This document shows positions 3,277-3,367 of a stretch of DNA of 7,641 nt, piece after piece (within the stretch, counting starts at the first letter, position 1; each line of letters begins with the position of its first letter). A program made the position numbers and the translations under genes. Under the pieces are notes generated by a model that saw only the letters and a program-made list of their open reading frames with translations, ran no database searches and had not been told where the DNA came from. The stretch comes from Escherichia coli (GTDB lineage: Bacteria > Pseudomonadota > Gammaproteobacteria > Enterobacterales > Enterobacteriaceae): NCBI RefSeq assembly GCF_003334255.1, contig NZ_QOWU01000095.1; one strand, written 5' to 3'.

Positions 3277-3367
3277 GAGTCGCTCCATAAAACTGAACGT
3301 CAAAAGTTTAATAATCAAAACCAAAGAAAGTCAAGAAACAAAACCATCTGTGTTTTAAAATCAAAAC
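3277..3367. promoter_or_regulatory. Divergent immunity control region: PRM-like and PR-like promoters with two 16-bp operator-like sites (3306..3321 and 3352..3367)
   Basis: Plus strand: TAAAAT at 3356..3361 ends 6 nt before the repressor ATG, implying a leaderless transcript. Minus strand: TTGACT (3334..3329), 18-nt spacer, TAAACT (3310..3305), upstream of the cro-like gene. The sites GTTTAATAATCAAAAC and GTTTTAAAATCAAAAC overlap the two -10 elements. Confidence 0.6.

Follow-up and report, generated by a model that had tools for sequence, protein, structure and literature searches.

Sixteen-base-pair dyads at the divergent cro/CI and dicBF promoters as the probable operators of a lambda-type immunity switch in an Escherichia coli prophage

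Which sequences act as operators in the immunity region of a lambdoid prophage of Escherichia coli is the question raised by a 7641-bp stretch of DNA (RefSeq assembly GCF_003334255.1, contig NZ_QOWU01000095.1; hereafter the window), identified as the early region of such a prophage by open reading frame (ORF) calls and annotation. A gene for an 80-aa Cro-like protein (3034-3276, minus strand) and one for a 212-aa CI-like repressor (3368-4006, plus strand) diverge here from 91 bp of intergenic DNA, and an operon containing dicF and dicB lies 3' of the repressor gene. A preliminary description of the sequence had predicted a repressor operator set from three similar 16-mers, two between the divergent genes and one upstream of the operon. 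Our comparative analysis indicates that such 16-mers are very probably the OR and OL operators of a lambda-type immunity switch in a widespread E. coli Rac/Qin-like prophage. The binding specificity would be new, and the design of the switch is of the well-known lambda type.

The three 16-mers read in the DNA as they had been written, namely GTTTTGATTATTAAAC (reverse complement of 3306-3321), GTTTTGATTTTAAAAC (reverse complement of 3352-3367) and GTTTTGATAAAAAAAC (4074-4089, plus strand). The pattern GTTTTGATNNNNAAAC has exactly three matches in the 7641 bp and none in 200 dinucleotide-preserving shuffles; this pattern was drawn up after the fact from the sites themselves, and an independent symmetric dyad core, GTTYNNNNNNNNRAAC, was also run. 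The latter has five matches versus 0.78 expected, four of them at promoters (3306, 3352, 4074 and 4103), and the fifth, at 6332 inside the recE-like gene, is G+C-rich at its centre and is put down to chance. A repeat search independently recovered 3306-3330 versus 3352-3376 at 46-bp spacing, and paired 3310-3323 with 3333-3346 at 23-bp spacing with 12 of 14 positions identical (AATAATCAAAACCA versus AAGAAACAAAACCA). A chance origin of the 16-mers is excluded.

A promoter scan placed a PR-like promoter on the minus strand (3305-3334; -35 TTGACT at 3334-3329, 18-bp spacer, -10 TAAACT at 3310-3305, start near 3298), which is predicted to drive the cro-like and ydaT-like genes, and, on the plus strand, a PL-like promoter for the dicBF operon (4091-4119; TTGACC at 4091-4096, 17 bp, TAAACT at 4114-4119, start near 4126). 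The PRM-like -10, TAAAAT at 3356-3361 on the plus strand, was assigned by direct reading, no other good -10 being apparent by eye ahead of the CI gene; the corresponding -35 is poor (AAGAAA, 3333-3338). Since this -10 places +1 on the A of ATG 3368, the CI start lacks a Shine-Dalgarno sequence and an operator abuts the ATG, a leaderless CI mRNA is predicted.

Around these promoters we find not three but five sites. The OR1-like site (GTTTAATAATCAAAAC, 3306-3321) covers five of the six base pairs of the PR-like -10, at about -8 to -23 of the predicted PR start, and the OR3-like site (GTTTTAAAATCAAAAC, 3352-3367) holds the PRM-like -10 and ends at -1 of the CI ATG, which confirms the preliminary placement of these two sites over the -10 elements of the divergent promoters. 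A weaker site suspected at 3330-3344 is borne out as well; it is best written 3329-3344 (AGTCAAGAAACAAAAC), is spaced exactly 23 bp from OR1 and to OR3, and keeps its position in all lineages. The right half of this OR2-like site is a consensus half-site, and its left half is the PR -35 (TTGACT, minus strand). The site at 4074-4089, here OLa (plus strand), does adjoin the PL-like -35, ending 1 bp before the TTGACC at 4091, and forms the middle of a perfect palindrome, AATGTTTT-N6-AAAACATT (4071-4092). What the preliminary description missed is OLb (GTTCGTTTTTCTAAAC, 4103-4118), which lies over the PL-like -10 at -23 to -8 of PL, as OR1 does at PR; the operator interpretation given in that description gains comparative support, and its set was incomplete. 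No third OL site was found in the window. Several pseudo-palindromic repeats over PR and PRM with a second cluster at PL, in a divergent arrangement with a short spacer and face-to-face promoters, are the features of a lambdoid switch, as are a repressor with an N-terminal helix-turn-helix (HTH) and a C-terminal S24 domain and a small HTH Cro.

Are the 16-mers under selection of their own? Relatives whose CI is 84-90% identical, from E. coli, Salmonella and metagenomes (L003-L015), were aligned and 11 sequences were counted; L016, an error-ridden metagenome contig with homopolymer indels, was left out of the conservation counts. Operator positions are variable at 4/80 versus 65/137 for other non-coding positions (Fisher p = 5e-12), or versus 37/76 when promoter hexamers are excluded from the outside set and the distal CI-ydfA spacer is dropped (p = 2e-10), p-values that overstate the evidence because the relatives are not phylogenetically independent. 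Third codon positions of CI are 63% variable in the same 11 sequences. Within the OR region, variation falls in the cro leader (3277-3279, 3282, 3288, 3294 and 3299-3302) and between the sites (3322 between OR1 and OR2, 3346-3349 between OR2 and OR3); OR1 and OR2 are invariant, and the sole variable position of OR3 is 3363, position 5 of the motif. The PL region varies at 4066-4071, 4096-4102 and 4120-4132, and the blocks 4073-4095 and 4103-4119 are kept, apart from 4078, 4106, 4107 and an insertion at 4090 in L007. Of these exceptions, 4078 is the only variable position of OLa, in relatives at 84% identity. In OLb, conservation starts exactly at 4103, immediately past the variable 4096-4102, the outer GTT and AAAC are invariant, and polymorphism is limited to positions 4, 5, 6, 10 and 12. 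Near-identical IMG/VR loci repeat this picture, with OR1-OR3 unchanged in 65 loci, OLa without polymorphism in about 63, and OLb changed at the central positions 5, 6, 10 and 12 only. Purifying selection limited to the 16-mers is one of the grounds on which we read them as operators.

A second and stronger ground comes from distant relatives. A HMMER scan with the N-terminal 103 residues of the repressor gathered S24 repressors that are 46-50% identical there and keep the helix ASKG[ST]VSQW, and an IMG/VR scan added a repressor group 41-44% identical over the full length; together these give the loci L017, L018, L021-23 and L093-L103, two of which have ASRG or ASKA in the helix. They have a common layout of a P22_Cro-like gene, a CI gene and then a PL-like promoter. 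At the DNA level almost nothing else is shared, since BLASTN finds no similarity to the window in L018 and L021, and its match in L017 is limited to 360 bp of coding sequence at 65% identity. Yet GTTY-N8-RAAC 16-mers occur in every distant locus at four matching places. At the first, the start of the 16-mer is -62 to -64 relative to the CI ATG in 12/12 lineages, and it overlaps AGTTTA (the PR -10); at the second, it ends at -1 of the CI ATG in 11/12 lineages and at -4 in L021; the third precedes the PL -35, and the fourth lies across the PL -10. Each distant locus has 3-5 matches versus 0.33-0.36 expected, and in the 12 lineages there are 51 matches in 3.0 kb of intergenic DNA versus 2 in the remaining 39.8 kb. 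That dyad 16-mers turn up again at equivalent positions relative to the promoters, in loci whose DNA has almost no similarity to the window, is in our view the decisive evidence, and it strongly supports the assignment of the sites as operators.

The distant loci also define the motif of the family. A tally of 88 half-sites gives G in 87, T in 87, T in 88 and T in 79 or C in 9 at the first four positions, followed by A/T-rich positions. The outer ends of the motif proposed in the preliminary description (GTTTTGAT....AAAC) hold, and its 'GAT' does not, for position 5 varies even in close relatives; judged from these alignments, what stays invariant throughout the family is GTTY-N8-RAAC around an A/T-rich centre, and 'GAT' is specific to the window lineage. 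Halves reading GTTTTGAT are also seen in L018 and L094, and the PL -10 site of L018, GTTTTGATGTGTAAAC, matches the originally proposed pattern exactly. The middle OR element, [AG]GTCAA-N6-xAAAC, holds a 22-24-bp register in most lineages and is looser in two (CGTCAA...AAAGC in L018, ATCAAT...CGAAC in L021). The OLb equivalent is a clean dyad in distant relatives, for example GTTTTGATGTGTAAAC (L018) and GTTTGATTTATTAAAC (L017), and is the most regular OL site. The CI helix, the Cro helix and the motif are kept together in all lineages sampled.

Two further matches were seen beside this set. The 16-mer AGTCGCTCCATAAAAC (3278-3293) has the OR2-like form AGTC-N8-AAAC; it sits on the Shine-Dalgarno sequence of cro at a distance of 28 bp from OR1, and its equivalent in L003 and L006 is GTTC...AAAC, a full dyad match. 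With no dyad match at this place in the window or in distant relatives, it was left out of the site set, and it may be either a weak fourth site or a chance match. In L021, there is an extra dyad match downstream at OL.

Is the operator set confined to the part of the prophage that determines immunity? BLASTN of the window against prophage CP-933P finds 2636-3055 (ydaT, 87%) and the DNA from 4133 onward (95-97%; the right-hand flank match is given as 4133-4288) in common and nothing between, and most E. coli genomes match the window only from about 4133 (4119 in one case). With 3056-4132 unshared and its flanks, ydaT to the left and the leader of ydfA to the right, common to other immunity types, this interval is a self-contained, immunity-specific cassette. 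All five operator 16-mers lie within it, as is to be expected of a heteroimmune module in comparison with CP-933P and K-12-type loci. The segment 3034-4320 is 100% identical in E. coli G1/2, is present at >=80% coverage in 1042/5426 complete E. coli genomes, including O157:H7 and O145:H28, and is also found in three induced-prophage records. When the CI N-terminal domain was compared with 50,697 phage records by tblastn, the best matches besides three uncharacterised induced E. coli prophages were at most 47% identical and came from phages of Acinetobacter, Staphylococcus and Pseudomonas; among these records, the same repressor is seen in no model phage that has been characterised. Literature searches returned no paper that describes this repressor, or the motif as an operator.

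The closest characterised analogue of the cassette is the PaaR2/YdaS switch of CP-933P (Sp12) of E. coli O157:H7, in which PaaR2, YdaS and YdaT act as analogues of CI, Cro and CII and for which electrophoretic mobility shift assays (EMSA), DNase I footprints, rapid amplification of 5' cDNA ends (5'RACE) and reporter fusions cover PR933P, PRM933P and PL933P (Jurenas et al. 2021, PMC8630535). In that study PR933P was mapped by 5'RACE, paaR2 was found to be leaderless, PL933P was validated by reporter fusion, and the operators are 18-bp palindromes with the half-site GTTTAGTAA, bound by both PaaR2 and YdaS (PMC8630535). The two regions are alike in gene order and flanks (ydaT at 87% DNA identity, the ydfA-to-dicB leader and operon at 95-97%), in a short divergent region (97 bp versus 91 bp in the window), in a leaderless repressor gene (predicted in the window), in a PR made of TTGACT, 18 bp and TAAACT, and in the position of the PL -10, whose TAAACT ends 14 bp ahead of the shared leader in both. 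The outer arm of the dyad, GTTT/AAAC, is likewise embedded in the TAAACT -10. They differ in that PaaR2 is a 123-aa protein without S24, encoded in a toxin-antitoxin operon, in that four equally spaced repeats are reported versus three at 23 bp in the window, and in that the CP-933P operators have been assayed and those of the window are predicted. BLASTP finds no match between the window CI and PaaR2 or between the window Cro and YdaS, so the CP-933P data can be transferred by architecture only and not by homology.

The same pair provides a reciprocal control. The CP-933P operators (L008, 2433-2450 and 3458-3475) fit GTTY-N10-RAAC exactly at the PR and PL -10, and this 18-bp form, to be expected of PaaR2/YdaS operators, has no match in the window; conversely, the 16-bp pattern has no match in the CP-933P operator regions, its single match (0.51 expected) being inside coding sequence. 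The outer arm, part of TAAACT, is therefore common to both immunity types, which differ in the span of the dyad. The confinement of the sites to the immunity-specific cassette, together with the lack of 16-bp matches at the operators of an unrelated immunity type, is the third ground for the operator assignment. A bolder reading would be that the unrelated PaaR2 and HTH-S24 CI use one outer arm, GTTT/AAAC, embedded in the TAAACT of interchangeable PR and PL promoters, and that heteroimmunity is set mainly by half-site spacing (16 versus 18 bp) and the inner bases. We regard this as speculative and rather improbable. If it were true, the promoters would be a fixed scaffold onto which different repressors converged, and prophages that share a cell, for example in O157:H7, could be linked by weak cross-binding that couples their switches and also the expression of several dicF/dicB copies.

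Several observations weigh against the operator reading, besides the non-independence of the relatives counted above. OR1 and OLb have their AAAC arm in common with the TAAACT -10, and the left half of OR2 is the PR -35, so that promoter function accounts for part of the conservation of these three sites. Only one of the two halves of OR2 is a good half-site. OR2 would also overlap the PRM -35 region, at odds with activation in the style of lambda, and being centred near -31.5 of the predicted PRM start and not at -42, the position of OR2 in lambda, its geometry does not predict PRM activation. The OLa-OLb distance is 29 bp in the window lineage versus 32-35 bp in the relatives L017, L018, L021 and L093-L103, a difference of about half a helical turn that is due to the gap between OLa and the -35 (1 bp in the window versus 5-8 bp in relatives); with this spacing not conserved, a fixed cooperative OL pair is doubtful. 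Finally, literature searches found no binding, footprint, transcription-start or reporter data for the cassette.

Could the GTTT...AAAC blocks, then, be promoter elements and not operators at all? Besides the shared hexamers, OR3 holds the PRM -10 in an A/T-rich context, and the A-run of OLa (4082-4088) lies at about -44 to -38 of PL, where the proximal UP subsite of a promoter would be located, so that -10 (TAAACT), -35 (TTGACY), UP-like A-tract and A/T-rich PRM -10 might together account for the blocks. Spacers are normally unconstrained, however, and here 3311-3321 and 4103-4113 are kept while the adjacent 4096-4102 is free; OR3 and OLa retain both dyad arms although only their centre or one side could serve a promoter; a fixed 16-bp dyad recurs in distant relatives with different central bases; and CP-933P has the same hexamers with 18-bp dyads. 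Promoter-element conservation explains part of OR1, OR2 and OLb and does not explain the distal arms, OR3 or OLa, and as a full account of the sites we consider it very unlikely. We attach a marginally higher, still small probability to the idea that only one of the two regulators binds the 16-mers and that the other recognises something else. The CI N-terminal domain and the Cro-like protein give no BLASTP alignment with each other, and the binder is not assignable from the sequence. Against this, both the repressor and Cro of lambda, 434 and P22 bind the same or overlapping operator DNA, and the two proteins of the CP-933P switch do so too (PMC8630535). In the present family the CI helix, the Cro helix and the motif are conserved jointly, the two recognition helices have S-K-x-[ST]-V-S-x-W in common (a likeness seen by eye and partly generic to HTH_XRE proteins), and a repeat search in the 91-bp OR region brought up no other repeated element.

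Least credible of all, to the point of being nearly negligible, is the proposal that the ATCAA/TTGAT core marks sites of another protein, either host integration host factor (IHF; consensus WATCAANNNNTTR) or the CII-like YdaT (TTGATT-N6-AATCAA). It draws on OR3 (AATCAAAACATGA) and OLa (TATCAAAACATTT), each one mismatch from the IHF consensus, on TTGATT, one YdaT half-site, which is present in OR1 and OR3, and on the close match of the window YdaT to the solved YdaT of CP-933P (8BT1, E = 1e-81). A scan of the window found no exact match to the IHF consensus anywhere, and IHF was rejected as an explanation of the 16-mers. YdaT was rejected likewise, since 0/5 of the sites fit TTGATT-N6-AATCAA and the only match in the window, with two mismatches, is the inverted repeat at 3040-3057, the position of the published operator OM, which is described together with the YdaT structure (PMC9986795). 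Moreover, ydaT is common to CP-933P at 87% DNA identity, yet the CP-933P OR lacks the motif, and distant relatives keep the dyads without ATCAA. The repeat at 3040-3057 (TTGATTTTCATGAATCCC, at the end of cro and the start of ydaT) resembles the high-affinity YdaT operator OM of CP-933P with a degenerate right arm (AATCCC), and the mosaic junction with CP-933P, at about 3055/3056, falls within it.

Returning to the sites as operators of the switch, we infer binding by the CI-like or the Cro-like protein from the comparisons above. Dimers of the 212-aa CI-like and 80-aa P22-Cro-like proteins would recognise 16-bp pseudo-dyads GTTY-N8-RAAC, one half being GTTTTGAT in the window lineage, through contacts to the outer 4 bp across an A/T-rich centre. 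OR would consist of three sites at exact 23-bp spacing, with OR1 on the PR -10, OR2 on the PR -35 and OR3 on the -10 and start of the PRM that makes the leaderless CI mRNA, and OL of two sites bracketing the -35 of the dicBF-operon promoter, OLa just upstream and OLb over the -10. In the lysogenic state, occupancy of OR1, OR2, OLa and OLb by CI would silence cro, ydaT and replication on one side and ydfABC-dicF-dicB on the other, and Cro, or CI in excess, would shut off cI at OR3. From their positions, OR1 (-8 to -23 of PR) and OLb (-23 to -8 of PL) are expected to repress by occlusion, OR2, which covers the PR -35, to repress PR, and OR3 (-16 to -1 of PRM) to mediate negative autoregulation or the shut-off by Cro. 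OLa (-52 to -37 of PL), lying 1 bp from the -35 and over the A-tract, probably hinders sigma region 4 or the alpha-CTD, and it may also serve a long-range interaction between OL and OR, about 745 bp off. The assignment of proteins to sites, the order of occupancy, cooperativity or looping and the effect of OR2 on PRM are likewise what we infer from this layout.

How far does this layout follow the classical switches? In lambda, too, three OR operators spaced by about 23 bp lie between the divergent PR and PRM, further operators are clustered at PL on the downstream side of cI, the CI protein combines HTH and S24 domains, and PRM yields a leaderless cI message. The PR and PRM starts are about 83 bp apart in lambda, and those predicted here about 70 bp. 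Lambda departs from the window in its 17-bp operators of different sequence (16 bp in the window), in three OL sites versus the two detected here, which bracket the -35, in the position of OR2 relative to PRM, in the Cro protein, which is of P22 type in the window, and in the scissile Ala-Gly, which is Ala-Ala in the window. In comparisons with protein structures of the PDB, full-length lambda CI is the best match to the 212-aa repressor (E = 7.5e-10), the N-terminal domain aligns with the 434 repressor (E = 1.8e-4) and P22 C2 (E = 1.6e-3), and the 80-aa protein with P22 Cro (1RZS, E = 2.5e-8). The 434 operator, ACAA-N6-TTGT, has the same design, in which the outer 4 bp are conserved and an A/T-rich centre varies; the window differs from 434 and P22 in its half-site GTTY, in a span of 16 bp versus 14 and 18, and in the residues of the recognition helix.

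Prophage Qin has the same operon, ydfABC-dicF-dicB-ydfD, under a PL-like promoter just downstream of its repressor gene, and operator repeats in the divergent region and at dicBp, which is controlled by DicA and DicC (Bejar et al. 1986, Yun et al. 2012, as cited in PMC10448788). DicA is a 135-aa protein without S24 that is controlled by the antirepressor Rem (PMC10448788), unlike the 212-aa S24 repressor of the window. The immunity cassettes are different; no homology to dicA-dicC is seen in the window immunity region, and K-12-type genomes match only from about 4133.

Carried by roughly one in five complete E. coli genomes, the cassette is the predicted gatekeeper of one copy of dicBF, whose products inhibit cell division and affect phage sensitivity (PMC10448788; bioRxiv preprint 10.1101/708461). 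An operator set with exact coordinates makes the switch, its SOS inducibility and cross-talk between prophage repressors testable. The design, being standard for the lambda type, will not surprise a specialist; the value lies in the annotation and in a 12-lineage set for the study of operator-repressor co-evolution.

The two regulators themselves call for some comment. The 80-aa protein belongs to the P22_Cro family (PF14549 at 1.3e-15; recognition helix TSKTTVSMW) and is labelled 'Cro/CI family transcriptional regulator' in RefSeq. The 212-aa repressor has an N-terminal HTH_3 (recognition helix ASKGSVSQW) and a C-terminal Peptidase_S24 domain. Annotations shorten it: RefSeq/PGAP, in a 100%-identical genome, gives a 112-aa 'LexA family protein' without HTH (coding sequence equivalent to 3668-4006), and a phage record gives 199 aa from ATG 3407, although the intact ORF encodes 212 aa from ATG 3368. 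These shortened calls probably arose because the gene, being leaderless, lacks a ribosome-binding site; the start at ATG 3368 is backed by helix 1 (M-x-K-Q-T-I-S-E-R-I...), which both close and distant homologues keep. The protein has the catalytic Ser (SDSM) and Lys (IRKL). The residues aligned to the scissile Ala111-Gly112 of lambda CI are Ala94-Ala95 (codons 3647-3652, LQQAASW), where most relatives have QAG, and the RecA-dependent inducibility of the repressor is therefore uncertain.

Past the CI stop lies a hairpin (4029-4058) with the stem GCCATC/GATGGC (4035-4040, 4046-4051) lengthened by CUGU/ACAG, whose stem is kept and whose loop is variable in relatives. Distant relatives have canonical G+C hairpins with a T-run at this position, and the window hairpin has none; its reading as a terminator was rejected on a folding energy that is unremarkable (-12.6 kcal/mol, z = -1.4).

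In gene order the window begins with an O-like replication gene, followed by the ydaT-like gene (2625-3050, minus strand), the Cro-like and CI-like genes, ydfA, ydfB and ydfC, the DicF RNA (5174-5225, upstream of dicB; Rfam RF00039, full length at 76.7 bits), dicB (5400-5588), ydfD and a recE-like exonuclease gene. The dicBF operon 3' of the PL-like promoter appears intact. The O-like gene contains, at about 2085-2165 and 2395-2425, short tandem repeats (TGTATCTTTATC twice) and recurring CGTGAC(A/T) motifs, which by eye look like origin iterons.

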